Shown: positions 1 to 33,785 of the stretch, piece after piece | Position numbering within the stretch: position 1 is the first letter of the stretch | Layout: the number at the start of each line of letters is the position of its first letter | From: Arcobacteraceae bacterium | GTDB lineage: Bacteria; Campylobacterota; Campylobacteria; Campylobacterales; Arcobacteraceae | DNA length: 64,000 nt | Assembly: GCA_963662945.1 (NCBI GenBank) | Contig: OY759974.1 | Span: 480,001 to 544,000 of the forward strand | Direction of reading: 5' to 3' | The notes under the pieces: generated by a model | The model's database searches: none | The model's input: only the letters and a program-made list of their open reading frames with translations | Told to the model about the DNA's origin: nothing | Translations under genes and position numbers: made by a program

Positions 1-975
1 ATCCCAAACAGGCTTTGGAACATCCCCATTAATTGTTGGACTTCCTATAATAATACCTGTACTCTCTTCTAAAATTGTAAGCATATTTTGTTCATCAAGT
101 GCAGTTAAATCATAAATATTTGCTATTAAATTATCATTTGATTCAATACCATCATAAATACTTTCTGCCATATCTTTTGTATTTTTATAACTTGTTACAT
201 AAAAAATTGAAACAACTTTTTTACCATGTCGTAAATCTTCTTTATTACTCCATTTTGCATACTTATCTATGTATTTTTGAGGATCATTTCGCATAATTGG
301 ACCATGAAGATTACAAATCATATCAATTTTACATTTTTCATACAATCGTAAAGCATTTAAAACATCTGTTTTAAATGGTCGCATAATATGGTCATAATAG
401 TATTTAAATGCATAGTCAAAATCTCCCACTAAATCATCAAATAACCTATCATCAAAATAATGGCTTCCAAAAACATCACCACTAAATAATATCTCATCTT
501 CTACTAAATAACTACTCATAGTTTCAGGCCAATGAAGATTTGGTGTACTTAAAAACTTTAATGTTTTATTTCCAATTTTAAGTTCTTTATTTGTCCAAAC
601 ATTTTCAAGATTCATATCATCTGTTTTAGCAATTGATTTTAACATAGGACGAGCCATAGGAGAGATAAATACTTTAGCATTGTTTGTTCGTTTAACTAGT
701 TCAGGTAAAGCACCACTGTGATCTGGTTCTAAGTGGTGCATCACAATATATTTTATATCTTCATATTTACAAACAGATTCTATTTTTTTGAAAAACTCAT
801 CTTGAAACTCTAACTTAACAGTATCAAAGATTACAATACCATCTGTTGTTTTAAGCAAATAAGAATTATAAGTAGTACCATTTGCCGTTTTCATAATAAT
901 GTCAAATGTTCGAATATCTGGGTCACTGACCCCAATATAAAAAAGGTCTTTTTTTATTTGTATTGCTTGTTTCAT
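1..975 (-). CDS. fprA: Flavodiiron (A-type) flavoprotein, metallo-beta-lactamase + flavodoxin domains; C-terminus runs off the window
   Basis: Not in ORF track; manual translation from ATG at 975: MKQAIQIKKDLFYIGVSDPDIRTFD...GTTYNSYL...HLEPDHSG...HWPETM...LFSGDVFGSH...HGP...GSPTINGD, the diiron and flavodoxin motifs of FprA. Confidence 0.92.
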   Translation of the reverse strand, partial: MKQAIQIKKDLFYIGVSDPDIRTFDIIMKTANGTTYNSYLLKTTDGIVIFDTVKLEFQDEFFKKIESVCKYEDIKYIVMHHLEPDHSGALPELVKRTNNAKVFISPMARPMLKSIAKTDDMNLENVWTNKELKIGNKTLKFLSTPNLHWPETMSSYLVEDEILFSGDVFGSHYFDDRLFDDLVGDFDYAFKYYYDHIMRPFKTDVLNALRLYEKCKIDMICNLHGPIMRNDPQKYIDKYAKWSNKEDLRHGKKVVSIFYVTSYKNTKDMAESIYDGIESNDNLIANIYDLTALDEQNMLTILEESTGIIIGSPTINGDVPKPVWD

Positions 976-4270: not shown

Positions 4271-6198
4271 TAAAACACCCACTTCATACTAAGAGTTACT
4301 TCTCTTTGATAATCTTCTAAAGCAAAAGGAGTTCCCGTAAATAATCCCTCTTTATAAAGTGATTTTGTAGATTTATCAAGAAGATTTTCCCCTTTAAGAC
4401 TTATTGATTGATGTTTTGAAAGATGATAGGTAAATCCTAGATTAAGGTTATAACTATCTTTTACATTAACTGTAGTAAATCTATATGCATTTTTATATAT
4501 TAATGAAGTGAAATAATCAAGTTTATCATATTCACCTGTAAACTTAATATAACCACCTTTATTTGAATTATTTAAAGTTTCACTGAGTTTTGTTGTAAAA
4601 TAATTTAACTCTAATTTATGATTTAATGAAAGCTCATAGGTATAATCAAAAATCCAATTTTTTGTTTTAATTGTATGATCATTAATATTTGTAAAGCCAA
4701 CTGGAGTATAATAAATAAAATTTTCAATCTTAACATCATTATACAAAATACTTAATCGAGATTTTTCATCTGCATATACACCTTCAATAGTGTAATATTT
4801 ATATTCTTGATTTTTAAGATTAAGTCTATTTGGATTTGTAATATCTGAATAATCAATATTATAAAATGATGGTGCTAAAGATGTCTTAGTAACAAAGCTT
4901 TTTAATCCAAAATGTTCTAAAGGGCTATAAATAGCTCCTATTCTATAATGTTCTGTATTAAAATCTTCTAACCCACCATTTCTCTTATATTTATCTACTT
5001 TGGCATTTCCTATTACTAACAAATCATCATGAAGTTTATAATCATCTTGGATAAATAAAGAACTAATAGTTTCTGTATCAAATCCATTAAAAGCTCCAAT
5101 TTCAGTAGTAGTATTAAGAAAATTGACTGTCGTATTTTGTTTTGTTTTATATTTTTTATTTTGAATAGAAGTTCCAATAAGAAAGTTATTACCTCTAATT
5201 GAAAAACTTTTTGATAATAATCCACTATATTTTTTAAATTGAGTATTTTGATAATATTCTTTTGGAATTGTCGTACCTAAACTAGCCATATTCAATGCAG
5301 GTATTATCTCTAACCCAGCACTATTTCGTTCTTCATATTGTAGTTCATTAAAATCATAAGATAAATTTAATTTTAATGATTTATCATCTAAAAAATAGCT
5401 TGTTATATCAAAAAAATAATTTTTTGATTTTATCTTACCATCATCAGGAACTACATCTAAAGCAAATCCTGTATAATTATCTTTTTCTAAATCAGTATAT
5501 CCAAAATTAACACTTGAACTTTCTTTTTGCCCATTAAAATAAAAATAATTCCTACTAGAATTATTATGTAATTGTTGTGTTTTATAATTTTGTTTTTCAT
5601 GTACCTTGCTATTATTAAAATAAGCAAGATATGACCAACCATTGCTTAAAACATCTGCATGACTTATACTTTTAGAATTTGTCCCATGAGAAGCAATAGT
5701 TCCAACTATTTGTGACCCATTCTCTTTTAAAGGGTTTTTTGTATACACTCGTATAAAAAATATCCCTGCATCACTTCCTAATGCAAAAGAACTATTTCCT
5801 CTATATACTTCTATATAATCTACAAAATCTAAAGGAAGATTTATCCATGAGAAAGAGGGAGATTGCATATAGATTGAACTAACTTCATGATCATTGATAA
5901 ACAATCGAAAAAATCCACTTACATCTGTTTTACTTCCAGAGAGAGAAAGATTTGAAACACCTAATTTATTAGTATTAAAATTATTTATTGGAAATTCTTT
6001 TAAAATATCAGAAAGTGTAGTATATTGCATACGTTTTAATTCTTCCTGAGAATAAATAGTCACATTTCCCAATTTTTCATCGACAGTTTTAAGGGATTTT
6101 TTAGTACTTGATTCATACTCTTGAAGTAAAGTATCTATATTTTGAGCATACATAAAATTTATACATATAAAAAAAATAAATAAGATATACTTATACAT
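4270..6198 (-). CDS. TonB-dependent outer-membrane receptor
   Basis: Signal peptide; plug motifs (TIYSQEELKRM..TLSDILK, VDYIEVYRGNSS); GENLLDK; C-terminal ...SMKWVF. Confidence 0.88.
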   Translation of the reverse strand: MYKYILFIFFICINFMYAQNIDTLLQEYESSTKKSLKTVDEKLGNVTIYSQEELKRMQYTTLSDILKEFPINNFNTNKLGVSNLSLSGSKTDVSGFFRLFINDHEVSSIYMQSPSFSWINLPLDFVDYIEVYRGNSSFALGSDAGIFFIRVYTKNPLKENGSQIVGTIASHGTNSKSISHADVLSNGWSYLAYFNNSKVHEKQNYKTQQLHNNSSRNYFYFNGQKESSSVNFGYTDLEKDNYTGFALDVVPDDGKIKSKNYFFDITSYFLDDKSLKLNLSYDFNELQYEERNSAGLEIIPALNMASLGTTIPKEYYQNTQFKKYSGLLSKSFSIRGNNFLIGTSIQNKKYKTKQNTTVNFLNTTTEIGAFNGFDTETISSLFIQDDYKLHDDLLVIGNAKVDKYKRNGGLEDFNTEHYRIGAIYSPLEHFGLKSFVTKTSLAPSFYNIDYSDITNPNRLNLKNQEYKYYTIEGVYADEKSRLSILYNDVKIENFIYYTPVGFTNINDHTIKTKNWIFDYTYELSLNHKLELNYFTTKLSETLNNSNKGGYIKFTGEYDKLDYFTSLIYKNAYRFTTVNVKDSYNLNLGFTYHLSKHQSISLKGENLLDKSTKSLYKEGLFTGTPFALEDYQREVTLSMKWVF

Positions 6199-6251
6199 AA
6201 ATTACTCCACTAAATTTTGCTTATTCTAGTGAAATAATCATTAAAAGATGG

Positions 6252-6626
6252 TTATTGATTTTGATTTTTTAAAAGTATTCTTTTGAGCCAAAGTGGTGCA
6301 TTTCCTTGCATCATTTTTTGTAATGATTGTATCACATCTTCTATTCTTTCAGCTTCATGAGATGACTTCATTGGATAGATACCACACTTTTGTACCATAT
6401 TGGCAGCTTTTGGTCCTATTTGAGATACATAAACGATGTCGCTATCTTCTAAACAATTGATTTTATATTCTAATTTATCCACCTCATCATCAAACTTTAG
6501 TGAAGAATCAACTTCATTAATAAGTTCATAATCATCTTCAGAAACTTCATAAATATAAAACATCTCACACCAACCAAAATGTTGGTTTACATGAACATTA
6601 TCTTTTGATGCAAATGCTATTTTCAT
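6252..6626 (-). CDS. nifX: FeMo-cofactor carrier NifX
   Basis: MKIAFAS..VNQHFGW..., DKLEYKI, IGPKAA, PLWLKR closely follow NifX. Confidence 0.85.
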   Translation of the reverse strand: MKIAFASKDNVHVNQHFGWCEMFYIYEVSEDDYELINEVDSSLKFDDEVDKLEYKINCLEDSDIVYVSQIGPKAANMVQKCGIYPMKSSHEAERIEDVIQSLQKMMQGNAPLWLKRILLKNQNQ

Positions 6627-6641
6627 AAATTTGTCCTAGTG

Positions 6642-7613
6642 TTAGATAATATATATCTGTATATTCTCATCAATGATTTGAGAAAGTGTATTTTTAATCA
6701 TATCATAAGTACTTGTAGCACCCAAGCTACACCCAGCACAGGCACCTTGATATGCAAGTCTTATTTGAATCTCTGGTTCATTAATATAATCTAAAATCAT
6801 CATATCTCCACCATCTTTTACTAAAATTGGTCGAATATAACGGTCAAGTGCATCTGCTATAAGTTCATATTGCTCTTCATATGATTTTGCTCTAAATACT
6901 TGATTAAGTTCACATGTTTTATTTGGTAATTTATCAACACCACCCATTTGAGCTACTGCCATTGGATGACCAGATAGTGCTGCATTTAACATGGCATTAA
7001 AACCTTCTCTTACTCTATCTTCATTTGTTCTATCTTTTAAAAGAAGAAGCCCTAATCTAAAATTTGCACCTTGATGATTTTTTTTCACTGCAATTCTAAA
7101 ATAATCTATTGCTTTTTCTTCATCCTCTTCTACACCAATTTTTGATTGATACATAAGTGCCAAATTATATGTTGCAGAGTCATTTTCATAAACTGCACCT
7201 TTTTCAAACCACTCTCGAGCTTTGTCAAAGTCTTTTTCTACACCCTCACCTTTTAAGTACATCAAACCAATATTTGCCATTGCTTGGTCATTTTTGAGTT
7301 CTGCTTCTTTTTCCCAAATACTTAATGCTGTTGCAAAATCTTTTGCTCTATATGCTTTTAATGCTTCTCTATGTTCCATAAATCTAATTCCTTCTTTTGG
7401 ATTTGGGATCTCTTTCCCTAACTCTAATTGTTTTTTTATATGCTTTTCTAAATACTCAGTAGCTATCTCTATCGCTTCGTAATAATCTTCACTAGAACCT
7501 TTTATATCAAAGTCAGTATAAACTGCCAAATAAGCATCACCAACCTCATGTTCCCCTGGATAAACTTCAACTGGATAATCCAAACTCATATAGTATTCTA
7601 AATTTTTTTCCAT
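6642..7613 (-). CDS. Fusion of HicB-like domain, Sel1 repeats and NifU C-terminal (Nfu) CxxC domain
   Basis: N-term YPVEV..G.AY...D..G..EAIEIA.E.L...LELGKEIPNP; Sel1 repeats AMANIGLMYLKGEGVEKDFDKAREWF, ATYNLALMY..GVEEDEEKAIDYF, ANFRLGLLL; C-term IRPILVKDGGD..YQGACAGCS. Confidence 0.8.
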   Translation of the reverse strand: MEKNLEYYMSLDYPVEVYPGEHEVGDAYLAVYTDFDIKGSSEDYYEAIEIATEYLEKHIKKQLELGKEIPNPKEGIRFMEHREALKAYRAKDFATALSIWEKEAELKNDQAMANIGLMYLKGEGVEKDFDKAREWFEKGAVYENDSATYNLALMYQSKIGVEEDEEKAIDYFRIAVKKNHQGANFRLGLLLLKDRTNEDRVREGFNAMLNAALSGHPMAVAQMGGVDKLPNKTCELNQVFRAKSYEEQYELIADALDRYIRPILVKDGGDMMILDYINEPEIQIRLAYQGACAGCSLGATSTYDMIKNTLSQIIDENIQIYII

Positions 7614-7913
7614 CTAGCAACACTCCAACTCAACTTGATCTAGAACTTCTGTACCTTTTTGGAAATCAAACTCTTCAAATAAATCATGGATATAAAACAC
7701 ATTTGCACATACTAAATACAAAGTATCTTTTTCTTCCCCTTTACTCCAAACTTCTCGATAATTTTCTGGTATTTTATCCATAAAATTAACCCATAAACCA
7801 TTTTTCGATTCTGGTTTTGATTCAAAAAGTTCATTCATAGCATCAAGAACCAATGCAGCATTTTCATAACAATCTATATTGTTAAATGTAACATATCTAT
7901 CTTTTACTTCCAT
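7614..7913 (-). CDS. cowN: CowN-like protein protecting nitrogenase from CO
   Basis: 99 aa; N-term DRYVTF.NIDC and C-term LDQVELECC typical of CowN; nif context. Confidence 0.75.
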   Translation of the reverse strand: MEVKDRYVTFNNIDCYENAALVLDAMNELFESKPESKNGLWVNFMDKIPENYREVWSKGEEKDTLYLVCANVFYIHDLFEEFDFQKGTEVLDQVELECC

Positions 7914-7916
7914 AAT

Positions 7917-8309
7917 TTACTTATTATCCTCACAACCACAACTACAAGTTTCACCCTCACCAGGATTGAGTAGGTTTTTATAATTGTCATTTGTAAGTTT
8001 TACTAGTTTGTTATTATTAAAATTATTACATATATCTTCTATTGAATAAGTATTATAATCAGCAGTGTAAACATCCATACCATTTTTATCAAATGATTTA
8101 TAAACACCTTCACCCATATAATAAAATATAGTAGAATCTACACCTTTTGTTTTTAAGAAATCACCACTTTTAGGTCCTTCCCCTTGAACATCATTTGTTA
8201 TGATTTCATACTTACCTGTATGGGTATCTAGTAGTGCAAAATATGGAACTCTTCCATAAAGTTTTGAAATAGTTGTTGATTCTTTTGTATCGATTGGAAT
8301 TGCTAACAT
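7917..8309 (-). CDS. NifB/NifX-family (dinitrogenase FeMo-co binding) protein
   Basis: MLAIP....ISKLYGRVPYFALLD, MGEGVY..F...GMDVY; C-terminal CSCGC. Confidence 0.75.
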   Translation of the reverse strand: MLAIPIDTKESTTISKLYGRVPYFALLDTHTGKYEIITNDVQGEGPKSGDFLKTKGVDSTIFYYMGEGVYKSFDKNGMDVYTADYNTYSIEDICNNFNNNKLVKLTNDNYKNLLNPGEGETCSCGCEDNK

Positions 8310-8345
8310 TATAAATCCTTTTCTACATTTATATGCTAGTATATT

Positions 8346-8360
8346 TGCATAATCTATTCC
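8346..8360 (-). promoter_or_regulatory. Putative sigma54 (-24/-12) promoter of the NifX-like/cowN/Nfu/nifX operon
   Basis: Minus strand GGAATAGATTATGCA = GG-N10-GC, 36 nt before the ATG at 8309; 13/15 identical to the element before nifE. Confidence 0.7.
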
Positions 8361-9226
8361 CTAAATATTGTTTTATCTCGTCCTGTCAATTTTGCTTTGT
8401 ATAATAACTTATCTGCCTCTTTTAATAAATCATCAATTGTTAGAAAAGTATCATTGTATTGTGCAATTCCACTACTAATAGTAAAATTTACTTTTTTTGA
8501 TTCTACATCTAAAGTATCTGCTTTTATATTATTTCTTATAACTTCAAGAAGTTCAAAAAGTATTGCTTTACTTTCAAAATTACAAACAATTGCAAACTCT
8601 TCACCACCAAGTCGTCCAAATATACTCTGTGATGGAAGCATACTTTGAATCATCTTAGCTATTCTTTTTATCACAATATCCCCAATATGATGTCCATAAG
8701 TATCATTAATACTTTTAAAATTATCAATATCAATCATCACAGCAAATAGATCTTTTTGTTGAAATTCAAATCTTTCTTGTGCTAATTCAAAAAACTTTCT
8801 ACGATTTAAAATACCTGTCATAGTATCATGAGAAGATATATATTCAAGATTTTTTATCATACTTTGTAACTCTAATTGAGTTTTTACTCTAGCCATTAAT
8901 TCTTTAGGTTTAAATGGTTTAGAAACATAATCACTCCCACCAACTTCATAAGCTTTTTCAATACTATCTTCATCTGTTTTTGCAGTAATAAATATTATAG
9001 GAATTGCTTGAGTTTGAGGATTTTGTTTTAATTGTCTACACACTTCATATCCATCTATATTGGGCATCATAATATCAAGAAGTATTAGATTTGGTACCTC
9101 TTCATTTGCTATTTCTATAGCATTTTTTCCATCTAAAGCAACTATAACATCATACTTGTCCCCAAGTAATTCTACTAATATTTTTATATTTATTTTTGTA
9201 TCATCAATAACCAATATGGTTTCCAC
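8354..9226 (-). CDS. Response-regulator diguanylate cyclase (REC-GGDEF)
   Basis: ILVIDD, ILLDIMMP, SKPF; DIDNFKSINDTYGHHIGD, RLGGEEF; GTG start with AAGGA RBS. Confidence 0.93.
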   Translation of the reverse strand: METILVIDDTKINIKILVELLGDKYDVIVALDGKNAIEIANEEVPNLILLDIMMPNIDGYEVCRQLKQNPQTQAIPIIFITAKTDEDSIEKAYEVGGSDYVSKPFKPKELMARVKTQLELQSMIKNLEYISSHDTMTGILNRRKFFELAQERFEFQQKDLFAVMIDIDNFKSINDTYGHHIGDIVIKRIAKMIQSMLPSQSIFGRLGGEEFAIVCNFESKAILFELLEVIRNNIKADTLDVESKKVNFTISSGIAQYNDTFLTIDDLLKEADKLLYKAKLTGRDKTIFRE

Positions 9227-9235
9227 AATTTTCCT

Positions 9236-12151
9236 TTATATGAGTGCAAGAAGTTCTAAAGCCTTTTGAAAATCAAATTTTTCTGTACATTGCTTTATGT
9301 GATTAAAATTTATTTGTTCCTTTTTTGAAAGCTTATATTGATTTAGTTCCTCTAGTACCTTTTCAATATTTTTAGGTCTTTTAGAATGTAAAGTCTCTTC
9401 AAGTTTTTTACACAACTCTTTTTTCTTTTCACTTGTTAAGATCTCTTTTGGGTTCATAGATGACTCGTTTTGAAAACTCAACTGTTCTAATTCCTCAATT
9501 ACTTTATTCGTTTCTTTATAAAGTTTATCAATTAAACTTGAATCATTTTTATTTTCAACTTCTTGTATAATTTTATTAAGATTAATAGCCCCTATATTAG
9601 CGCTTAATCCCTTCATAGTATGTAAAACTCTTTTTTTCTCTTCATCTTCTAAATTATCTATAGTAAAACTTTTATAATCTTGATAAAAAGTATTTAATAC
9701 TTTCAGATATAACTCTTTATTATTGGCTAAATGTTTTAATCCATTTATTGTATCTATATATTTAAAATTCGGTAATTTTATTAGCTCTTGATTTTCTACA
9801 ATTTTATCTAGAGAAAGATATTTTCTTAATGTTGTATATAGTTTTTTTACTTCAATTGGTTTATTTAAGTGTTCTTGCATCCCTGCAGCTTTTGTTGCTT
9901 CGATATCCTCTTTCATCGCATTAGCAGTTAATGCAATAATAGGTATATTTTTATTAATCTTTTTTATATGTTTAGTTGCTTCATATCCATCCATTATTGG
10001 CATCTGAATATCCATAAGGATCAATTGATATTTATTTTTATTTTTTTGAAATATCTCTAAAGCTTCTTTCCCATTTGATGCTATATCTATTGTTATTTCG
10101 CTTTGCTCTAACAGCCCTACAACTATCTCTTGATTCATTTTATTATCTTCAACTAATAATATATGCTTTCCACTAAAAGGAATAGTTTGCACTTCTCTTT
10201 TTATAACTGTTTTATTTAAATCTTCAATATTAAAATCTTTAATAAATATATCACTTAAAATATCATTTAATAAAGAGGGATTCACAGGCTTTTGCAAAAA
10301 TAATTTTATACCAACTTCTCTTGCTAATTGGACTATTGATTCTTGTCTAAAGCTACTAACCATTATTACAGTTGGAGGCTTTTTGCCCTTATACTGTTCA
10401 TTGATAATTCTTGTTGTTTCTATACCATCAAGTTCAGGCATATTCCAATCCATAAGTATAAGATCATAATCGATATTACCTTTTTTCAGATGTTCTATCG
10501 CTTCATTTCCACTTTTTACACCATATACTTTGATATTAAACATACCCAAAATATTTTCAAGAACTTCATGCCAAGTTTCATTGTCATCTACAACTAATAC
10601 TTTTTTATCAGGAAAAATATTATATTTTTTTGTTTCATTTTTTTCTTCTAATTCAATTTCAAATATGAAAGAACTTCCAACTCCATATTCACTCTCAATC
10701 CATATTTTACCATTCATCAACTCTACAAGCTGTTTTGATATGGTTAGACCTAAACCCGTACCTCCATATTTTCTTGTAGTACTTCCATCTGCTTGTGAAA
10801 AAGACTCAAATAGTTTTGATTGTTGCTCTTGGGTTAAACCAATTCCTGTATCTTTTACCTCAAATTTATATCTGTTTCGAGATGCTTTTGAAATATATAA
10901 ACCAACTTCACCCTCTTGTGTAAATTTTACTGCATTAGCTAAAAGATTTGTAAGAATTTGTGAAAGTCGTAAATTGTCCCCATAAAACTTTTTACCTATA
11001 CTTGTATCATAACTCACAATAAGTTCAAGATTTTTTTCGTGAAGTTTAAACTCTATGATATTAACTACATTTTCTATAGTTTTAAAAAGATCAAAATCAA
11101 CCTTATCAATAGAGAGTTTTCCAGCCTCAATTTTAGAAAAATCTAATATATCATTAATAATAGAGAGAAGTGTTTTTGCACTATGATCTATCTTTTGTAT
11201 ATAATTTTTTTGTCTCTCATTAAGGTCTGTTTGCAGTGCCAGATGAGACATACCAATAATACCATTCATAGGTGTTCGTATCTCATGAGACATATTTGCT
11301 AAAAATTCTGATTTTGATTTTGTAGACTCTTCTGCTTTAACTTTAGCGATTTCAAGCTCTTTGGTTCTATTTTCAACCTTCTTTTCTAAACTTTCATTAA
11401 GATCTTTTAATTGAGAATATGAATGATTGAGTTTTTTAGTCATATTTGAAAATGTTTTTGCTAAAATTCCAACTTCACCTTTTGTAGTTATATTATCCAA
11501 TTCCTCTTTAATATTATTTTTTCCCTCTGAGACCCTTTGTGCAATATCTGTTAAAAGTATAATTGGTCGAATAAGTCTTTGAGCAAATATATAACCTAAA
11601 AATGAGAAAAATAAAGCTATAGAAAGTGCTGTAATAAGTGATGTTTTAATATTAGTGTATATTTTCTTTTCAATATCTTGCTGCGCTTTATCTACTTCAA
11701 TATTCAATTTTGTTAAAGGATAAACAATACTCAATGTACCCCATTTTTGAAATAATTGAATAGGTGTAGAGATAACAATATCGTTATTCAGCTCTTTAAT
11801 AGTAACTTTATCGACGGACATTTTGTAAATACGCCCTTCAAATATTTGAACTGTATTATCAACATTATTTAACACTATACCATCTATCTCATCTCTACTT
11901 ATTAAGTTTTTAAATATTGTGTTTATATGAGATAAATTTAATGAAGCAATATCATTTTCAATCTCTTTTTTATAATACTCTATTGTCTGATTTGCATTAA
12001 ATTTTAAATTTGATTTCATTAAAGAGATTCTTTTATCAAGTTCATTATTCATTATCTCAATTTGCTCATTAATATTTTTAACAGTAAATATTACTGTGAT
12101 TGAAATTACTATTATTAATATATTTGAAATTAATTTACTCTTTAAACTCAC
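9236..12151 (-). CDS. Hybrid sensor histidine kinase (TM-HAMP-HisKA-HATPase-REC-REC-HPt)
   Basis: [37 protein letters not shown]; two REC domains (MDWNMP, MDIQMP); HPt [13 protein letters not shown]. Confidence 0.95.
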
Positions 12152-13020
12152 TCTAATACCTTATTAACAAGAGATAATCCATTTTTATTATACTTTAAAT
12201 TTAACTTGTCTGCTATTTTCTTATTAAAAATCACATTTGTACCCATTGGCATTTGAATAGGTGTAAATTCTTTCTTTTGCTCATATTGATTTATCATTGA
12301 AGCTATTTGTCGACCTATTGTAGGATTATCTGCTGATATTATTAATGTTGCATCATATTTTAAAAATAATTCATGATATGCAAAGAGAGGCTTTTTTGCC
12401 ATTGTAACTTTTTCAAAAAGTGATAAAACTTTTTTTTCATCTTTTAATAATAATGGATCAGCAATTAAAATTAAACCATCACTCTCTTGAATTTTATCAA
12501 TATCTATCTCATTATCTTCAGTCATCTCTTCACCTATTATTTTTATACCTATTAATAAGGCATTTTGTTTGAAGTTTTCATAGAGTTCTTTTGTATAAGA
12601 GCTATAAACAATAGTTAACTTTTTAGTATCTGGAAAAAGTGATTTAATAATAGTTAAATTCATACCCGCATGAAGTTCATTGGAAACACCAAATCTATTT
12701 TTTATCAAATCTAATCTTTTATAGTTTACAATCGAACTAAAAAATAATGTTTTTTCAGGGATATACATATCTACATATTTGTATGCTTTTGTTCCTATTG
12801 CATAAACAATATCAGGATACTCATCATATAAATACTCTTTAATTTGTTTATTTGTCATTTTAGAAATATCCAAAGATTTATAATCACCTATAAAATTTTC
12901 TTTAAATGATCTCTCTACACTTGAATATTTTTCGATATTATTATTTGAGTTCAATACTAAAATCTTCTCAGCAAATAAAAAGGAGATGGTAAAAAGGGAT
13001 ATTGTAATTAAAAACTTCAT
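12148..13020 (-). CDS. ABC-type substrate-binding-like periplasmic protein (COG2984-like)
   Basis: Signal peptide; [43 protein letters not shown]. Confidence 0.75.
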
Positions 13021-13784
13021 TTTACACCCCCTAGAATTTTATTATAGTCATTTTTTGTTAGTATAACGATATCATCAATACCTAACAAATTTAATATCTT
13101 TTTACCATATAAATCTGAATTCATAGACTTAAATAAATTAATACATTCCTTACTATATTGATTTTTTAATTTTGAAGCTATAAGCATTCTAAAATTAGGT
13201 TTTGATTCTTTATAAATAATCATTTGCTTTGCTAAAAAGCCATTTACATTTTTTAATAACTCAAAGCTATCTTTTGATACTAAAGCAAACTTGCTTAATC
13301 CAAATCCAACAGACATTAAAGCATCAATCTCTTTTGGTACATTTAAAATATTTAAATTATTATTTTCTATAAGTGTATCGATAAGTTTTCTTGAATAATC
13401 TTGAGAGTACGTTGTAGTGATGGTTCCATCAAATTGTAAACCCTTTTTACCTACAATTATTTTAGTATCTGTCATACTCTCTCTTTTTAAAGCAACGAGC
13501 TTTGCTTCTAAGTCATATTTTTTAGCAATTTGTTTATAGTGCCAGCTTGAGAGAATAACAATAATATCTTGATTTTTTAAAAACTGCTCAAAGATCTCTT
13601 TTTTGTTAAAAGGTTGAAAATCATAGTCTCCATATTGACTTAAATATTGCTCAAAAGTAACTTTTAATGACTTAAAATCATTTACATTTGCTTCTGTTGT
13701 ATAAAAATATATTTTTTTAGGCTCAGCAAAGAGAGTATTTGACAATAAGAAGATAAGGAATATTAAATATTTTATTTTAACCAT
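13017..13784 (-). CDS. Periplasmic binding protein (PhnD/phosphonate-binding-like)
   Basis: Signal peptide; overall pattern of PhnD-like proteins (FEQYLS.., KEIDALMSVGFG, GKKILNLLGID). Confidence 0.55.
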   Translation of the reverse strand: MVKIKYLIFLIFLLSNTLFAEPKKIYFYTTEANVNDFKSLKVTFEQYLSQYGDYDFQPFNKKEIFEQFLKNQDIIVILSSWHYKQIAKKYDLEAKLVALKRESMTDTKIIVGKKGLQFDGTITTTYSQDYSRKLIDTLIENNNLNILNVPKEIDALMSVGFGLSKFALVSKDSFELLKNVNGFLAKQMIIYKESKPNFRMLIASKLKNQYSKECINLFKSMNSDLYGKKILNLLGIDDIVILTKNDYNKILGGVK

Positions 13785-14998
13785 GGTTGGGTATATTTAT
13801 CCTCTCCACCTAGTGAACTATTCATTATTTCCCAATTTGCAATAAGTCCAGGGCAATTTTTAACATTTTTAGGTGCATCGATAGCTACTACATAGAGATT
13901 AATTGTTTCAACTTCAGGGTCATTAAATAATTCTTGTAATTGTGTAACATCACAAATTTTTATTTCAGGTTTTGAAGAAGCCTCTTTTTTATAAATCACT
14001 TCTGGCAAATAACAAATTGAATCAGGTCCCATTATGTATGGTTTTTCTATCTCATTACTTTGCGTATCTATAATAATATTAGCATAAATATTTTCATTTG
14101 CAGTATATGCTTTAAAAGAACTATTTTTGTAAAGATTTAATCCTTCTATTGTTAATATCCCGATATCTTCACCATGAATTGGTTTGGAATCTATTTTAGT
14201 TAATGTCCCATAAAAAATATCTTTTGTAAATCTTTTCTCTTTACTGTCATTATTCATATAACTAATGATTTTTGTTAAGCGAGTTTCAGTTGTCTTCTGT
14301 GTTTCTATAATAATTCCAATATTATAAGAATCTGTTAATGTATCTTTTACTACATACTCATTTTTAAGATTTTCTTTCTTCGTTGGATATAATGAAAAAC
14401 CACCACTATTTTTAAATGCACTTGAAGTAAACATCTCTCCAAAACACTCTTGAACATGATCTAAACTTTCAAGATTATAAGAGGAAAAATAAGGAACTTC
14501 ATTTCCACTTGCAATAAAATTTGGATAAAATTTACAGTTATAACCAGCAAAAAGTGTTAAAGGTAAAGTTGGTGTTGCTCTACCTGAGGGATCTGCATCT
14601 ATTACTTTTAAGGTTTTTCCTTTATTTTTTGCTAATTTACAAGCAATAATAGGTAAAACAGAGTTTACTGTTCCAACCTCCATAGGGAGAATATATTTAA
14701 ACTCATCAAAATCTTTCTCATTGCAGCTACACCAGTGTTCTATTATTTCAATTACATTTAATATTGACTTGTTAAGTTCTGCTGGATGAAATGAAGCACT
14801 AGGTAAACCCATTCCTGAAGTTGGTACTATCCAATCGGCATTTTCAATACTATCAAAAGATACAACTTCAACAAAGTCATCTACAGTGAAATTTGCATCG
14901 ATACAACTTTGCCCAAGTGCTAAAGGTCCCCCTCCTCCAGAGGCTAAAAAACAAGCTCCATTGAGTATATATTCAAGTTCTTTTTTACCTACTGTCAT
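13772..14998 (-). CDS. DUF917-family protein
   Basis: GACFLASGGGGP, GMGLPS, PMEVGTVNS, VIDADPSGRATPTL, ANENI, PDSIC are DUF917 hallmarks; no signal peptide. Confidence 0.82.
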   Translation of the reverse strand: MTVGKKELEYILNGACFLASGGGGPLALGQSCIDANFTVDDFVEVVSFDSIENADWIVPTSGMGLPSASFHPAELNKSILNVIEIIEHWCSCNEKDFDEFKYILPMEVGTVNSVLPIIACKLAKNKGKTLKVIDADPSGRATPTLPLTLFAGYNCKFYPNFIASGNEVPYFSSYNLESLDHVQECFGEMFTSSAFKNSGGFSLYPTKKENLKNEYVVKDTLTDSYNIGIIIETQKTTETRLTKIISYMNNDSKEKRFTKDIFYGTLTKIDSKPIHGEDIGILTIEGLNLYKNSSFKAYTANENIYANIIIDTQSNEIEKPYIMGPDSICYLPEVIYKKEASSKPEIKICDVTQLQELFNDPEVETINLYVVAIDAPKNVKNCPGLIANWEIMNSSLGGEDKYTQPWLK

Positions 14999-15014
14999 CT
15001 TTTCTCCTTATTTT

Positions 15015-16955
15015 TTAGAATGTATATTTAAGCTCAAACATAAAGTTTCTGCCATCTTTTTCATAATCATCAACAGTAAATCCAACTCGAGAGGGGTCAT
15101 ATGCTTCTTTATCAAAAAGATTATTTATGGTTGCTTTTAATTCAAGATTTTTATAGAAATTTTTTAATTGCATTGAAACATTTACCAAAGCATAACCTGC
15201 TACATCAGCTCTACTATCTCCTGATATTCTTTTCATTTTACCTCTTAGTTCAATATGATTATTAATATTTAAAAACTTATTAATTTTATAGTTGAAAAAT
15301 ATATTCCCTTTATGTTTTGCAATATCTGCCAAATCTGTATTGTTGATTTTATCTTTAGCTTTTTGATAGGTATAATTTGCCATAAGATATGATCCTCTAG
15401 TTAAATCATACTTAGTCTCAATTTCAATACCCTCAGAAGAAGTTTCACCTTGATTTATATAAATAGTTCCACTTTGAATAATTAAGTTATCAAAATCATT
15501 ATTAAAATAGGTTATTTTAGAGTTTAGATTAGCTATTGAACTATTTTCATAAGACAATTCATAAGTTTTAACCTTTTCAGGTGTCAGATTGGTGTTTCCT
15601 TGTATTACTGCTGAAGCATTATATGATTCTGCAAAAGTTGGCGTTCTAAACCCTTCTCCATAGATCGCTTTTAATATATTATTGTTATTAATTTGCCAAC
15701 TTAATCCACCTCTTGGTGCAGTATTGGAACCAAAATCACTATAATTATCATGTCTTATTCCAACTGTTAATCTTATATTATTACTTAAGTCATAAATATT
15801 ATTAGTATAGAGTGCCCACATATTTCTATTTACATTAGGAGCAAAAGTATTTGAAGTGTTAGATAAATTGACAGAGTTTACAATTGTTTCAACATCATAC
15901 TGTTTATGTTTTTCATATGTCGCACCTAAGATAGAAGTCAATTTTGTATTTACTTTATATGTTAAGAGTGATTCTATACCATTTTTTTCATTTGTAAGAG
16001 AGTTTCTCATTTTTAAATCAGCAGGCACAGTTAAAAGGTGCCAATAGTTATTAAACTTGTATTTATCAAAATATAATCTTGTAGATAGATTTAATTTTTC
16101 TGTTATTTGTTTATTATTGCCTGTTTCAATGAATAGGTAATCTAATTTTGGATCATTCTCTACTGCAATCTCTCCTAAAGGTCCAAAATGCTCCCCATCA
16201 TCTCTATTTAAATACATAGACTTCAAATAAAAATCTTTATAATCAATTTTTATATTAGCTGTTAATTGCTTTAAATATGGATTATTAGTAGCACTTTTAT
16301 TTGCTCTATCTTGTTTAATATAAACCTTATTTCCATCAGTATCTTTTACATTTATATTTGCAACTAAAGATAACTCATCAAATTGTTTACCATATAATAA
16401 ATTTATCTCTTTTGTATTATATGAACCTATTTTACTATTTACAATTACTCCATTGATATCTGCGGCATCTTTTGTAATTATATTTATCAACGCTGTAAAT
16501 GCATTTGCTCCATATAAAGCAGATGCTGGTCCTTTGACTATTTCTACTCTTTTTATATTATCTAATGAGATTTTGTCTAAGATTGGAGCAGCACCTCCAT
16601 TTAATAATAAAGCATCTATAGAATGACCATCAATCATAAATAATACTTGTTTTGAAGTAAAGTCTTTAATTCCCCTTACTTCGATTTCATTGAAAAATAT
16701 ATTCCCTTGTGTCACACTAATACCTGGAACTGTATTTAATAATTCTGATATATTTTTTACACCTGACACCTCTATCATCTCTTCATCAATAACATTCACA
16801 GAAGCAGATGTTTTTTTAATATTTTCTTTTACCCTTGAAGCAGAAACAACAAATGTTTCCTCTTCTAACCATTGCATCTCATCTTGCAAAGTTGTTTCAA
16901 AAGGATTAGCAAATAGTAGAGTAGGTAAAAATATATATAACAGTTTTTTTATCAT
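15015..16955 (-). CDS. TonB-dependent outer-membrane receptor
   Basis: Signal peptide; VVSASR, ELLNTVPGI, IKRVEIVKGPASALYGANAF..INIITK, GFRTPTF, LTPEK, NNLFDK, C-term ELKYTF. Confidence 0.93.
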   Translation of the reverse strand: MIKKLLYIFLPTLLFANPFETTLQDEMQWLEEETFVVSASRVKENIKKTSASVNVIDEEMIEVSGVKNISELLNTVPGISVTQGNIFFNEIEVRGIKDFTSKQVLFMIDGHSIDALLLNGGAAPILDKISLDNIKRVEIVKGPASALYGANAFTALINIITKDAADINGVIVNSKIGSYNTKEINLLYGKQFDELSLVANINVKDTDGNKVYIKQDRANKSATNNPYLKQLTANIKIDYKDFYLKSMYLNRDDGEHFGPLGEIAVENDPKLDYLFIETGNNKQITEKLNLSTRLYFDKYKFNNYWHLLTVPADLKMRNSLTNEKNGIESLLTYKVNTKLTSILGATYEKHKQYDVETIVNSVNLSNTSNTFAPNVNRNMWALYTNNIYDLSNNIRLTVGIRHDNYSDFGSNTAPRGGLSWQINNNNILKAIYGEGFRTPTFAESYNASAVIQGNTNLTPEKVKTYELSYENSSIANLNSKITYFNNDFDNLIIQSGTIYINQGETSSEGIEIETKYDLTRGSYLMANYTYQKAKDKINNTDLADIAKHKGNIFFNYKINKFLNINNHIELRGKMKRISGDSRADVAGYALVNVSMQLKNFYKNLELKATINNLFDKEAYDPSRVGFTVDDYEKDGRNFMFELKYTF

Positions 16956-17150
16956 AAAATTTCCAATAATAATCTTTTTCGATTTAGTATGGTATCACAA
17001 ACAAGTTTTAAAATACTAATCAAACTTTAATCCAATAACTTTAAACACTCTCTAGTTTCATTAAAATTACATTTTAAACTATACTTTTTTAGCAAATTAA
17101 ACCATAACAAATTAGCCTTATAAAGCTCATATATCCTTTAAATATACAAC

Positions 17151-17165
17151 GGAATATCTTATGCA
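17151..17165 (+). promoter_or_regulatory. Putative sigma54 (-24/-12) promoter of nifE
   Basis: GGAATATCTTATGCA = GG-N10-GC, 34 nt upstream of the nifE start. Confidence 0.72.
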
Positions 17166-17199
17166 TACTTATTATTAATACTACTAGCGGAGTACAAAG

Positions 17200-18552
17200 A
17201 TGATGGTAAACAAAAAACAAATCAGAGAACTTCTGAACGAATCAGCCTGTTCCCACAATGAGAAAAAAAAATCAAGCTGTGACAAACCAAAGCCAGGTGC
17301 TACAAGTGGTGGTTGTGCTTTTGAAGGTGCACAAATAGCCCTATTTCCTTATGCGGATGCAGCTCATTTAGTACATGCCCCAGCAACCTGTCAAGGAGCA
17401 AGTTGGGAAACAAGAGCCACGCCAACTAGTTGGGAAGGTGAAAATAATACTCCACTTGGATACTGTACCGATGTAACAACAAATGATGTTATCTTTGGTG
17501 GAGATCAAAAACTTGAAGATAGTATCAGTTATATTTGTGAAGTAAAAAAACCAAAAGCAGTATTTGTCTATGAAACTTGTGTAACAGCTATGATTGGCGA
17601 TGATATGGATAATGTTGCCAAAAGAATGGAAGAGAAATATAATATTCCAATTGTAGTAGTTCATGCACCAGGATTTGTAGGGAGTAAAAACTTAGGAAGC
17701 CGTTTAGGTGGAGAAGCTGTTTTACATCAACTAATAGGAACAAGAGAGCCAGAAGAGATACATCCATTTGGAATTAACTTAATCGGTGAATACAATGTAA
17801 CAGGCGATATGTGGCAATACACCCCTATCTTAGAAAAAATAGGGATAAAAGTTGTTTCAACTCTAGCTGGTGATGGAAGAATTGAAAATATCCAAATGGC
17901 ACATAGAGCAAAACTTAATGTAATCGTATGTGCAAAATCACTTGTAACATTAGTACGAAAAATGGAAGAGAAATACGGTATTCCACATATCTCTGTTTCT
18001 TTTTATGGTAAACGTGATACTACAAATGCCATCATGTCTATAGTCAATGCTTTTGGAGATGAAACATTGACAAAAAAAGCACTTGAAATTATAAAAGAGG
18101 AAGAGGAAGCTTTAGAACAAAGACTTCTTCCTTATAGAAAAATATTAGCTGGAAAAAAAGCTATTCTTAATACTGGTGGAAATAAATCTTGGTCAATAGC
18201 ATCAGCACTACAAGATATAGGAATCGAAGTGGTTGCTACAAGTATTAGAAAATCGACTTTAGAAGATATAGAGATTGCAAAAAAATATGTTCCAATCTTA
18301 ATGAAAGTTCCAGCAAATGAACAAGCTGCACTTATAGATGAACACAAAGTTGATATACTTCTAGCAGGTGGAAGAAGTTTATATACAGCTATCAAGAAAA
18401 AAGTGGCTTTCGTGGATGTAAATCAAGAGAAAAAAGTAAGCTATGGTGCGTATGGTGGCCTAGAAAACTTAGCTATAGATGTGTGTGCTGCCGTATTAAA
18501 TCCAGTATTTAAAACAGTAGGAGAACCAGCTCCATGGGATGAGAGCTGTTAA
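17200..18552 (+). CDS. nifE: Nitrogenase FeMo-cofactor scaffold subunit NifE
   Basis: KPGATSGGCAFEGAQIAL, AAHLVHAP..C, VYETCVTAMIGDD, PGFVGSKNLGSRLGGEA, NTGGNKSWS, FVDVNQE, PAPW. Confidence 0.95.
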   Translation: MMVNKKQIRELLNESACSHNEKKKSSCDKPKPGATSGGCAFEGAQIALFPYADAAHLVHAPATCQGASWETRATPTSWEGENNTPLGYCTDVTTNDVIFGGDQKLEDSISYICEVKKPKAVFVYETCVTAMIGDDMDNVAKRMEEKYNIPIVVVHAPGFVGSKNLGSRLGGEAVLHQLIGTREPEEIHPFGINLIGEYNVTGDMWQYTPILEKIGIKVVSTLAGDGRIENIQMAHRAKLNVIVCAKSLVTLVRKMEEKYGIPHISVSFYGKRDTTNAIMSIVNAFGDETLTKKALEIIKEEEEALEQRLLPYRKILAGKKAILNTGGNKSWSIASALQDIGIEVVATSIRKSTLEDIEIAKKYVPILMKVPANEQAALIDEHKVDILLAGGRSLYTAIKKKVAFVDVNQEKKVSYGAYGGLENLAIDVCAAVLNPVFKTVGEPAPWDESC

Positions 18553-18684: not shown

Positions 18685-20100
18685 ATGAAAATATTATTAA
18701 CAGGTGCAAACGGATATATTGGAAGAAGAGTTAAAAATATACTCAAAACCAATCCAAATATCAAACTAAAACTTTTTGTTAGAAATAAACAATCACTATC
18801 GCAAGAGATACTACAAACTTGTGAAGTAATAGAGGGTGATACCTTTAATCTTGATGCTTTAAAAGAAGCACTTAAAGATGTAGATGTAGCATACTATTTC
18901 ATACATTCATTAAATAATGAAAACTATAAAGAACTAGATAAAATATCCGCACAAAACTTTATCCAAACAGCAGAACAATGTGGTGTAAAAAGAGTTATTT
19001 ATCTAGGTGGGCTTGGTGTAAAAGATGAAAATACAAGTGAACATCTTTTAAGTAGACTTGAAACTGGAGAGGTTTTAAGTTCCTCATCAAAAGTGCAAAC
19101 TATTTGGATAAGAGCTGGAGTGATTATAGGTTCTGGAAGTGCTAGTTTTGAGATTATTAGAAATTTAGTTGAGAAACTTCCTGTGATGATAACCCCAAAA
19201 TGGGTAGATACTTATGCACAGCCAATAGCTGTAGATGATGTTATAAACTATCTCATCGCAGCTATAACACTTGAATATGACAAAAATGTAATAGTAGATA
19301 TAGGTACTACAAAAATGAAATACAAAGACCTTATGCTACAAACAGCGGTTGCCTTAGGTTTAAAGAGGTATTTGATTCCTGTCCCTTTTATGAGTATCAA
19401 TATCTCTTCTTATTGGTTAAATCTTTTCACACCTGTCCCATTTACTGTTGCTAAAGCATTAATTGAGGGATTGAAATCAGAAGTTACAATGCAAAATGAC
19501 AATGCAAAAAAATACTTTCCACAAATAACACCTCTTAATTATATTCAAGCTGTTAAAAAAGCTGTTGCAGAGATAGAACAAAATCAAGTGGTAAGTAGAT
19601 GGAGTGATGCCGATGGAAGTAGTTGGGATAAGACACATAGAAAACAGATACATGATGCTATTTTTGTAGATAGAGTTGAGGCTGATATTAGTTCTTATGA
19701 TAAAGCAAAAGTATTTCATGCTGTTAAATCAATAGGTGGAAAAAATGGCTGGTTTGATTATAGCTATTTATGGAGAATACGGGGTTTTATTGATAAACTT
19801 ATTGGTGGAGTTGGATTGAGTCGTGGACGAAGAGATACTTGCGATATCAGACTTGGTGAATGTTTAGATTTTTGGAGAGTAGAAGATATAAAAGAGAATG
19901 AAAGGCTCCTACTCTTTGCACAGATGAAACTACCAGGGGAAGCGTGGCTTGAATTTAAAATTCAAGATAATAAACTTATCCAATCTGCATACTTCTATCC
20001 TCGAGGTATTTGGGGAAGAGTATATTGGTATAGTATGATTCCTATGCACTATTTTATTTTTAAAAATATGATAAAAGGTATTTTAAAAAATAGTGAATAA
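18685..20100 (+). CDS. Atypical SDR oxidoreductase with C-terminal DUF2867 (YbjT-like)
   Basis: TGANGYIG, YYFIHSL, IYLGGLG, RAGVIIGSGSASFE; C-term IGGKNGWF, LDFWRVE, MKLPGEAWLEF. Confidence 0.88.
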   Translation: MKILLTGANGYIGRRVKNILKTNPNIKLKLFVRNKQSLSQEILQTCEVIEGDTFNLDALKEALKDVDVAYYFIHSLNNENYKELDKISAQNFIQTAEQCGVKRVIYLGGLGVKDENTSEHLLSRLETGEVLSSSSKVQTIWIRAGVIIGSGSASFEIIRNLVEKLPVMITPKWVDTYAQPIAVDDVINYLIAAITLEYDKNVIVDIGTTKMKYKDLMLQTAVALGLKRYLIPVPFMSINISSYWLNLFTPVPFTVAKALIEGLKSEVTMQNDNAKKYFPQITPLNYIQAVKKAVAEIEQNQVVSRWSDADGSSWDKTHRKQIHDAIFVDRVEADISSYDKAKVFHAVKSIGGKNGWFDYSYLWRIRGFIDKLIGGVGLSRGRRDTCDIRLGECLDFWRVEDIKENERLLLFAQMKLPGEAWLEFKIQDNKLIQSAYFYPRGIWGRVYWYSMIPMHYFIFKNMIKGILKNSE

Positions 20101-20151
20101 GCTTATTATGATAAAATGTTTTACTAATAAATCTTCCATAAATGAGGTCAA

Positions 20152-31675: not shown

Positions 31676-31797
31676 ACGCTATTGTATCATAATTAGTACC
31701 AAAAATACATAAGAAATGATTTTTTTTATATTGCTTTTAAATATTTTAGTCAAAATATGAATGTTAATTCACAAAGTAAAAATTATGAGGAGTGAGT

Positions 31798-32310
31798 ATG
31801 AAAATTTTGGCGTTAATGTTAGTGTTGTCTAGCTTAGTTTTTGGGCATACAAATATGCTTGAACATGGTGGTTTTATGAGTGGCTTTATGCATCCTATTA
31901 GTGGGCTTGATCATATTCTTGCTATGCTTGGTGTTGGTATGGTTGCATTTTATGCTACACAAAAAGGGTTTTTAACTCTTGTTGCTTTTATAGGTGCTAT
32001 GGTTTTAGCTGCTATAGCTGGATATAATGGTTTACAACTAGTAGGTATGGAAGAGGGAATTTTAATCTCAATTGCTGTAGTATTTGGTCTTATTGGATTT
32101 GCTTCTAAGCTTCCAATTGGTACTATTGTAGCTGTAGTTGCATTTTTTGGTATGTTTCATGGATTTGCACATGGAGCAGAGTTTACAACAGGAAACTTTA
32201 TAGCTTATATGTTTGGATTTTCAAGTTCAACGTTAATACTTCATTTAAGTGGTATGGCGATGGCTTACTTATATACAAAACAAGCACAATTAGTATTCAG
32301 TAATAACTAA
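31798..32310 (+). CDS. hupE: HupE/UreJ nickel transporter
   Basis: GFMHPISGLDHILAMLGVG, FHGFAHGAE, LHLSG. Confidence 0.92.
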   Translation: MKILALMLVLSSLVFGHTNMLEHGGFMSGFMHPISGLDHILAMLGVGMVAFYATQKGFLTLVAFIGAMVLAAIAGYNGLQLVGMEEGILISIAVVFGLIGFASKLPIGTIVAVVAFFGMFHGFAHGAEFTTGNFIAYMFGFSSSTLILHLSGMAMAYLYTKQAQLVFSNN

Positions 32311-32327
32311 AACTCTAAAGAGGTAAG

Positions 32328-32966
32328 ATGGAATTAGGTCTATTATTAATTTTTTGGTATGGTATCTTACACGCTTTTGGACCTGACCATCTTACTGCTA
32401 TTGCAGACTTTTCTATAGGGAAATCTAAAAAGAAAACTTTATTGATAACAATTGCATTCGCCATAGGACATGGTGTGATGCTTTTTTTATTTGCAAAACT
32501 TTTAGAATTTTATAATCTACCAGAGTATATTACAAATTATGGGGATACAATTAGTTCAATTGTAATTTTATCTATGGGACTTTATATACTATTTATGGTT
32601 TTTTCAGATAGAATTCAACTCAAGATTCATAATCATGCAGGGAAAGAACATATTCACATTTGGTTTGGAAAAAATCACGAACATGACAATACTGCTACAA
32701 CTTCAGCCTTTACTATTGGGGCTTTAATGGGTATTGGTGGAGTTAGAGGTATGCTAGTTACATTAGGACTAATTGAAGGTCAAAGTGTTGATTTAAGTTT
32801 AATACTCATGTTTATTTTAGGGGTTAGTGTAGTCTTTGTTTCACTAGGTGTTATCATACTCTATATAAATCAAAATCTCTTAAATAATATACAAAATATA
32901 CGAAGAGTATTTACAACAGTTGGAACTATTTCTGTACTTGTTGGTATAAATATGCTTGTAGGCTAA
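32328..32966 (+). CDS. Nickel/cobalt permease (NiCoT/UreH-like)
   Basis: GILHAFGPDHL, GH, His-rich loop HNHAGKEHIH; multi-TM; hyp context. Confidence 0.78.
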   Translation: MELGLLLIFWYGILHAFGPDHLTAIADFSIGKSKKKTLLITIAFAIGHGVMLFLFAKLLEFYNLPEYITNYGDTISSIVILSMGLYILFMVFSDRIQLKIHNHAGKEHIHIWFGKNHEHDNTATTSAFTIGALMGIGGVRGMLVTLGLIEGQSVDLSLILMFILGVSVVFVSLGVIILYINQNLLNNIQNIRRVFTTVGTISVLVGINMLVG

Positions 32967-32998
32967 ATAAAATAATTTTAATAAAAAAAGGAAGAAAT

Positions 32999-33784: not shown

Positions 33785-33785
33785 T

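Follow-up and report, generated by a model that had tools for sequence, protein, structure and literature searches.

A protein combining a HicB-type domain, Sel1 repeats and an Nfu domain is encoded among nif accessory genes in Campylobacterota: a candidate nif-dedicated Fe-S carrier

The 64,000-nucleotide stretch of Arcobacteraceae DNA analyzed here (contig OY759974.1, positions 480,001 to 544,000 of the forward strand; the window) encodes a 323-residue protein that joins a HicB-antitoxin-type N-terminal domain, a block of Sel1-like repeats and an Nfu domain. The gene belongs to a four-gene nif accessory cluster, which together with a lone nifE makes up the nif content of the window; a full nif operon is not present there. 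The domains and neighboring genes are listed in Table 1. In an earlier note on this DNA, made from the sequence alone, the strand of the gene has to be corrected: the list of open reading frames (ORFs) places it on the minus strand, and the plus-strand frame of the same interval is crowded with stops. An AlphaFold model of the whole protein, built from 26 family sequences, has a predicted local distance difference test score (pLDDT) of 87.6 and a predicted template modeling score (pTM) of 0.69. It consists of a short helix, three strands and a long helix (residues 5–64), nine helices (residues 81–222), a linker, and an Nfu fold (residues 245–322). The protein contains only three cysteines (positions 234, 292 and 295), and its N terminus is acidic and is not a hydrophobic leader.

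The N-terminal domain was identified by profile comparison and predicted structure. Pfam HicB_lk_antitox matched the window protein with E = 0.12 (12.9 bits, under the cutoff of 27), which is not significant alone. A genome scan recovered eight loci in Cohnella, Paenibacillus, Peptococcaceae and Anaerolineae that match only residues 1–74, with 33–41% identity. Their ORFs encode 115–146 residues, and all five that were scanned carry the HicB ribbon-helix-helix (RHH) domain PF05534 together with HicB_lk_antitox, four of them also UPF0150. The upstream ORFs of these HicB relatives match HicA_toxin in all seven cases tested (five above the gathering score); the loci are genuine HicAB pairs. Alignment of the family with the eight HicB antitoxins by hhalign gave a probability of 97.6% (E = 3.9e-12, 73 columns). 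The first eight residues of the family had served as the search pattern for the HicB loci and were removed from both alignments for a repeat comparison, which gave 95.3% (E = 2.3e-8, 62 columns); a control with an unrelated NifX-like alignment gave 0.2%. A separate AlphaFold model of residues 1–85 (pLDDT 86.3) was compared with known structures using Foldseek, and the top seven matches were HicB or UPF0150 structures with template modeling scores of 0.54–0.61. These include HicB of B. pseudomallei (6g1c, 6g1n and 6g26) and TTHA0281 (2dsy), with a root-mean-square deviation of 1.4 Å over 57 columns for 6g1c. In a language-model atlas, the clusters nearest to residues 1–80 are all HicB families (scores of 0.80–0.83), a result that the tool itself rates as a lead only; some members of the family carry a precomputed tag for PF15970, which the atlas output names "HicB-like_2". 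One JGI record of the family is labeled "NfuA / predicted RNase H-like HicB family nuclease".

The DNA-binding RHH or helix-turn-helix (HTH) tail of HicB antitoxins is not present, the remainder of the protein (residues 81–323) being Sel1 and Nfu where the HicB relatives have PF05534. A hidden Markov model (HMM) built from seven HicAs was run against six-frame ORFs from the window and from 38 related loci and detected no HicA-like ORF at E ≤ 10. The neighboring genes abut, leaving no room for a HicA beside the gene. Residues 1–75 are acidic (18 D+E versus 7 K+R) and are as well conserved as the Nfu domain, with a mean pairwise identity of 0.695 versus 0.705 and invariant columns at 28 of 75 versus 27 of 79 positions. 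The N-terminal domain is therefore under selection and functional, and not a decaying remnant.

The Sel1 region is the best-conserved part of the protein, with a mean pairwise identity of 0.760, as against 0.554 in the linker that follows it. Pfam Sel1 (PF08238) matched with E = 9.2e-17 (61.3 bits; cutoff 30.7), a sequence search of the PDB returned Sel1 proteins at E = 1.3e-35, and Sel1 proteins were also the best Foldseek matches of the whole model in the PDB (E = 1.5e-7). We read the nine helices predicted here as one degenerate Sel1 repeat, three canonical repeats and one capping helix. The match to Pfam NifU (PF01106) spans residues 252–319 (E = 2.2e-13, 50.6 bits; cutoff 27); PDB sequence matches of the Nfu domain are weaker (1veh, 2m5o and 1xhj; E = 8e-4 to 5e-3). 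The modeled domain runs helix, two strands, CxxC loop, helix and strand, and the CxxC loop has low pLDDT in this ligand-free model. The loop carries the motif G-A-C-A-G-C at residues 290–295. Neither of its cysteines, C292 and C295, varies in two alignments of relatives (26/26 and 30/30) or in a broader sample of the family (12/12).

All three domain calls of the earlier note, HicB-like, Sel1 and Nfu, are supported by profiles, hhalign, AlphaFold and Foldseek. The three to four Sel1 repeats that it had counted agree with PF08238 and with the three canonical and one degenerate repeats of the model, and the intact GACAGC that it had seen in an Nfu C terminus is confirmed by PF01106 and the invariance of C292 and C295. 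It had also seen no HicA nearby, as the HMM search and the abutting genes bear out. The note had allowed beforehand that the N-terminal region might fail to model as the HicB partial RNase H fold, and hhalign, AlphaFold and Foldseek all returned that fold.

Table 1. Position of the gene, its domains and its neighbors in the window
Feature	Position	Strand	Basis or remark
HicB-N/Sel1/Nfu gene	6642..7613	minus	ORF list; 323 codons and TAA stop
HicB-antitoxin-type N-terminal domain, residues 1–75	7389..7613	minus	hhalign, Foldseek, weak Pfam
Sel1-like repeat region, residues 81–222	6948..7373	minus	Pfam, model helices, Foldseek, PDB sequence matches
Variable linker, residues 223–244	6882..6947	minus	least conserved segment; mostly coil in model
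Nfu / NifU C-terminal domain, residues 245–323	6645..6881	minus	Pfam PF01106
CxxC, codons 292–295, presumed cluster ligands	6729..6740	minus	invariant in alignments
Response-regulator GGDEF gene	8354–9226	minus	farthest upstream gene listed in local order
130-residue Nitro_FeMo-Co domain protein, Cys-rich C-terminal tail	7917..8309	minus	Pfam PF02579, E = 3.6e-10
cowN, directly upstream	7614..7913	minus	Pfam CowN, E = 2.7e-26; NCBIfam 73.1 bits (cutoff 48)
NifX-like gene, 15 nucleotides downstream	6252..6626	minus	TIGR02663, E = 5e-31, 107.6 bits (cutoff 112)
nifE, divergent, ~8.9 kb away	17200..18552	plus	TIGR01283, 495.5 bits (cutoff 505.1)

Within the window, the TAG stop of cowN abuts the ATG of the HicB-N/Sel1/Nfu gene, and a TonB-dependent receptor gene follows the NifX-like gene in minus-strand order. 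The CowN and NifX neighbors named in the earlier note were thus confirmed by Pfam and NCBIfam. Six signaling and transport genes (8354–16955) separate nifE from the accessory cluster, and nifE stands alone: the genes that follow it are an NAD-binding/DUF2867 gene and hypF, not nifN. A truncated ORF at 1–975 (minus strand) is the flavodiiron gene of a related locus, L002, with 93.5% identity. A sigma-54 promoter pattern was found 32 times in the window, versus about 21 expected, and none of the matches lies upstream of the cluster; a scan of 6000–9400 for promoters and terminators showed no excess and no terminator. Elsewhere on the plus strand, 20152–22365 and 31792–38871 hold a hydrogenase maturation set (hypF, HupE/UreJ, hypB-like, hypC, hypD and a hypE-like gene of the AIR-synthase family) and a sulfur-assimilation block (rhodanese, cysteine synthase and an Rrf2 regulator), which look like ordinary contents of a chemolithotrophic Campylobacterota genome. 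Two close genes for class-I tRNA synthetases of the Glu/Gln type lie at 60211–61491 and 61806–63998 (plus strand); the second continues past the window edge and includes a GatB/YqeY domain in its C-terminal part.

Gene order was compared in 38 related loci from Arcobacteraceae/Campylobacterota, four of which were annotated with NCBIfam and Pfam. The order is fixed: Nitro_FeMo-Co protein, in some loci CowN or a ferredoxin, the HicB-N/Sel1/Nfu gene, and the NifX-like gene. The Nitro_FeMo-Co gene lies upstream on the same strand in 36/36 loci with at least 450 nucleotides of room. Downstream, the NifX-like gene is found wherever there is room for it (33/33 loci), at a distance of 100 nucleotides or less in 28. 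In 21 loci the NifX-like gene starts at the last base of the final codon (gap 0), overlapping the stop codon. NifE of at least 70% identity is encoded in 31 of the 38 loci, always on the opposite strand and usually 0.5–1 kb away. The Nitro_FeMo-Co protein has 124–133 residues and a Cys-rich tail (CxCxC or CxC) in the window and in loci L011 (9228–9599) and L014 (9221–9604); the tail may be an extra metal or cluster site. The protein has no NCBIfam equivalog match.

CowN is adjacent in only seven of the 38 loci, all within the clade of the window. When 30 family members are placed on a tree, a single branch (support 97/92) separates the six rows with adjacent CowN from the others, so that one change accounts for the label. 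Because it is confined to one clade (6/30 tree rows), CowN adjacency is not a family trait; it holds for the window, as reported earlier, and for its clade, and it does not extend across the family. CowN was downgraded as a specific partner for the same reason. A gap of about 400 nucleotides precedes the gene in nine loci. In L011 (9612–9989) and L014 (9619–9999) the gap contains a 126-residue ferredoxin-like ORF in the slot of CowN; that of L011 is a Pfam-confirmed 4Fe-4S dicluster ferredoxin, and that of L014 was recognized by its ORF sequence. In other lineages, the slot between the Nitro_FeMo-Co gene and the HicB-N/Sel1/Nfu gene is empty.

The wider surroundings were read in the four annotated loci. 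The divergent side carries nifE, nifN, hemerythrin, canonical nifX, a NifX-associated protein, flavodoxin, a P-II-like protein, NifW, NifZ and rpoN. On the same strand, the NifX-like gene is followed by genes for a flavodiiron protein and NifQ, and then by nifB-nifV (Arcobacter iocasae, L019) or nifH-nifD-nifK (L032). In L032 (11630–13170), the NifX-like gene is immediately followed by a flavodiiron gene of the O2/NO reductase type and a short NifQ gene; L019 likewise has the flavodiiron gene after the NifX-like gene, and the small ORF next in line has no Pfam match. In the clade of the window, represented by L002, five genes are inserted after the NifX-like gene (TonB receptor, a 156-residue protein, GGDEF, SfsA and HemD), with the flavodiiron gene and NifQ (16660–18215) farther on, then NifS of the epsilon type and NifU proper. 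Some relatives have lost the stop/start overlap with the NifX-like gene, and in these 1.6–6.5 kb of cargo lie between the two genes (L003, 11134–15904; L007, 11050–17011; L006, 11575–14471; L008, 7268–8671), including DUF4160/DUF2442 and NTase_sub_bind proteins, large AAA and STAND NTPases, RhuM, a HipA fragment, a methyl-accepting chemotaxis protein and a sulfate symporter. Much of this cargo looks mobile or defense-like.

A word-index search with the 323-residue protein gave 378 relatives at E ≤ 0.001. The best 120 of these share 62–95% identity, and nearly all have 322–323 residues; the named members among them are Campylobacterota (Arcobacter, Aliarcobacter, Halarcobacter, Marinarcus and Sulfurimonas). 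They are recorded as "NifU family protein", "TPR repeat protein" or "beta-lactamase". A whole-protein search of representatives at 50% identity returned 116,975 matches at E ≤ 0.001, dominated by giant Sel1 proteins; only five of the best 150 are of comparable length. Distant full-length forms have 39–41% identity (P0178 and P0267). Searching with P0178 gave 90 proteins, including forms of about 299 residues in Thiomicrolovo and Sulfurimonas isolates and forms of 241–242 residues that lack the N-terminal domain. In an alignment of 12 representatives, CxGC is present in all, and the 299-residue forms keep the core of the N-terminal domain minus its first helix. The same word-index approach, applied to short relatives of residues 1–80, gave one candidate, which is fragment-like. 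The atlas holds four Sel1+NifU clusters, all from Campylobacterota, and the family was seen in Arcobacteraceae and Sulfurimonadaceae. The three-domain architecture was not found outside Campylobacterota in searches limited by length windows and the word index. The earlier note had counted a wide occurrence in non-diazotrophs as evidence against its proposal; this was not seen, the architecture being restricted to Campylobacterota and standing beside nif accessory genes wherever flanks are visible. Thiomicrolovo HSL1-2 and HSL1-6, two named carriers of the ~299-residue form, are described as having nifHDK and growing on N2 (PMC12403661).

What can be observed directly is which domains the protein has, that each of the three is conserved, and that the gene keeps its place beside FeMo-cofactor assembly genes; cluster binding, the direction in which a cluster moves, who receives it and what the N-terminal domain does are inferred. 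We lean, with moderate confidence, toward a cytoplasmic, nif-dedicated Nfu-type [4Fe-4S] carrier with docking modules, analogous to NfuA. The CxxC of the Nfu domain would hold a [4Fe-4S] cluster shared by two subunits, as Nfu domains are described to bind such clusters and transfer them to apo-proteins, with holo-Nfu a cluster-bridged dimer (PMC8593673). NifS and NifU, which make up the general Fe-S assembly system of Campylobacterota, would supply the cluster, and the carrier would pass it to clients in nitrogenase or FeMo-cofactor assembly, for which NifB, NifEN, NifQ, NifH and the flanking Nitro_FeMo-Co and NifX-like proteins are candidates. Strict adjacency and translational coupling make the two flanking proteins candidate direct partners. 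Since NifS (epsilon type) and NifU proper are encoded elsewhere in L002 as housekeeping proteins, a separate nif-linked carrier is plausible. The Sel1 repeats and the HicB-type domain would bind no cluster and would act in docking, oligomerization or both, conferring client specificity in the way of the degenerate A-type domain of NfuA, a second, non-cluster-binding domain said to target that carrier to apo-proteins (PMC8593673). The HicB-type domain may have been recruited from a toxin-antitoxin system, with loss of the toxin partner and the DNA-binding tail; HicB N-terminal domains are described as binding HicA and, in HicB3 of Y. pestis, as also joining dimers into tetramers (PMC11594946). 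The earlier idea of an adaptor for Fe-S delivery, repair or nitrogenase protection fits the conserved FeMo-cofactor assembly neighborhood as judged from gene order. We also entertain, more tentatively, a narrower version: the antitoxin domain and the Sel1 repeats might recognize one specific client (the NifX-like carrier, the Cys-tailed Nitro_FeMo-Co protein, NifB or NifEN) in a dedicated step of [4Fe-4S] feeding or repair that has no counterpart in model diazotrophs.

Several observations weigh against a nif-dedicated carrier with a HicB-derived docking module. The assignment of residues 1–75 to HicB rests on similarity of profiles and of a predicted fold. HicB_lk_antitox matches to relatives (E = 0.035 for P0069; E = 0.0012 and 19.4 bits for P0178, the best) are all under the cutoff of 27, and the model of the N-terminal domain gave no Foldseek match at E ≤ 0.001, although values above this are common in Foldseek for so small a domain. 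Some lineages appear to do without the N-terminal domain, as forms of 241–248 residues that lack it (P0148 and P0159, both of 248 residues; P0347–P0351) occur among the protein records, although wrongly called starts might also account for these. In L028 (10001–10972), one of the 38 loci, codon 94 of the gene is an in-frame stop, so that this copy is a pseudogene unless the metagenome-assembled genome was misassembled there. The window itself has no detectable nifH, nifD, nifK, nifN, nifB, nifV, nifQ, nifW or nifZ; the statement of the earlier note that the gene lies inside a nif operon holds for the four-gene accessory cluster, and fails for nifH, D, K, N, B, V and Q. Full-text searches, with subscription-only literature outside their scope, returned no paper describing this architecture, and one epsilonproteobacterial nif inventory has, in the part of it available to us, only generic nifU (PMC4674564). 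The combination of domains and its strict linkage to nif genes thus appear to be undescribed; hundreds of members are already in databases under generic names, and it was known in principle that an Nfu carrier can have a targeting module attached. Finally, the presence of CowN and a flavodiiron protein in the string points to protection rather than assembly.

Protection is the substance of the main rival, in which the protein would be a redox- or oxygen-sensing adaptor. A labile Nfu cluster would report oxygen, CO or iron status and would not be donated, and the Sel1 repeats and HicB-type domain would bind nitrogenase or a cofactor carrier and shield or release it, like CowN or the Shethna FeSII protein. 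The string that the gene shares with CowN in the clade of the window, its continuation with a flavodiiron O2/NO reductase in relatives, and the hemerythrin and NifW genes on the divergent side would all suit such a role, and the Sel1 repeats are best conserved, as expected of a binding scaffold. Against this, CowN adjacency is limited to one clade (7/38 loci), and the remaining neighbors (NifX-like, NifQ, nifB, nifV and nifEN) belong to cofactor assembly. We know of no Nfu domain that acts as a sensor, and we consider this role unlikely. Nfu domains are described as carriers (PMC8593673).

Two further roles are less likely. A general-purpose Nfu carrier of Campylobacterota, placed beside nif genes by chance, would agree with the housekeeping nature of NifS/NifU in this phylum (NCBIfam nifS_epsilon matches L002), with the detachment of the window cluster from the nitrogenase structural genes, and with the stand-alone Nfu of Helicobacter pylori, described as maturing several Fe-S proteins (PMC8593673). 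We nevertheless find it quite improbable, as the position between the Nitro_FeMo-Co and NifX-like genes is kept wherever it is visible (36/36 and 33/33), often with start/stop overlap and across divergence down to 62% identity, and the named genomes with the distant ~299-residue form are those of diazotrophs. The other role would leave the N-terminal domain as an antitoxin-type neutralizer of a HicA-like RNase encoded elsewhere, or as an RNA binder, so that Fe-S status would be tied to mRNA turnover. Its homology to HicB domains that neutralize HicA, the double-stranded RNA-binding domains among the lower Foldseek matches (probability 0.4–0.7), and the statement that HicB proteins without a DNA-binding domain are common (PMC11594946) speak for this. 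It is hardly credible in view of the lack of a HicA-like ORF in the window or the 38 related loci, the abutting genes that leave no space for one, and the vertical conservation of the family within a string of metabolic genes, which sets it apart from mobile toxin-antitoxin pairs.

The importance of the protein depends on which of these readings applies. Most of what is known about delivery of [4Fe-4S] clusters to NifB, NifEN and NifH comes from Azotobacter, whose NifU is itself nif-specific. If the favored reading as a nif-dedicated carrier is correct, the protein, with docking modules of its own, would illustrate how a housekeeping NifS/NifU system is directed toward nitrogenase, and its N-terminal domain would be a plain example of an antitoxin domain put to use beyond toxin-antitoxin systems. 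The finding would gain weight if this antitoxin-derived domain were the client-recognition element of a dedicated cofactor-assembly step. The protein could also be a useful accessory part for transplanting nitrogenase assembly into new hosts. Should it be only a general Nfu carrier, the result would be a refinement of annotation, from "NifU family protein" or "beta-lactamase" to HicB-N/Sel1/Nfu carrier.

Compared with known systems, the protein belongs by membership to the Nfu and Sel1 domain families only. It shares with HicB antitoxins the N-terminal β3-α (partial RNase H) domain, at 33–41% identity over about 74 residues, but it has neither the RHH/HTH domain nor the HicA partner, being fused instead to Sel1 and Nfu; it thus fails two of three HicB-antitoxin features. 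The repeat fold and sequence motif are those of Sel1-repeat proteins (HcpC, LpnE, LceB and the Oxalobacter SLR proteins). Hcp proteins have paired cysteines in each repeat, whereas the repeat region here is free of Cys, so that pairing of the Hcp type is impossible. The database name "beta-lactamase" was rejected on the same ground; we presume that the label was carried over from annotation of Hcp proteins. With NifU the protein shares the Pfam family PF01106 and about 48% identity over 66 residues (L002, 20365–20562, inside the NifU-proper gene at 19594–20571), but it lacks the IscU-like and central ferredoxin-like domains, and the model for NifU proper (TIGR02000) reaches 31.1 bits versus a cutoff of 273.3, in the C-terminal part only, which is not membership. 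The NfuA model (TIGR03341) likewise matches only the Nfu part, with 21.8 bits versus a cutoff of 269.35, and does not place the protein within NfuA. Functionally, the closest known system by analogy is nevertheless NfuA of E. coli and Azotobacter vinelandii, which likewise combines a C-terminal Nfu CxxC with a non-cluster-binding N-terminal targeting module and has been linked to stress-resistant cluster delivery (PMC8593673). The protein described here differs from NfuA in having a HicB-type domain and Sel1 repeats instead of a degenerate A-type domain, and in the fixed place of its gene in a nif accessory string seen only in Campylobacterota.

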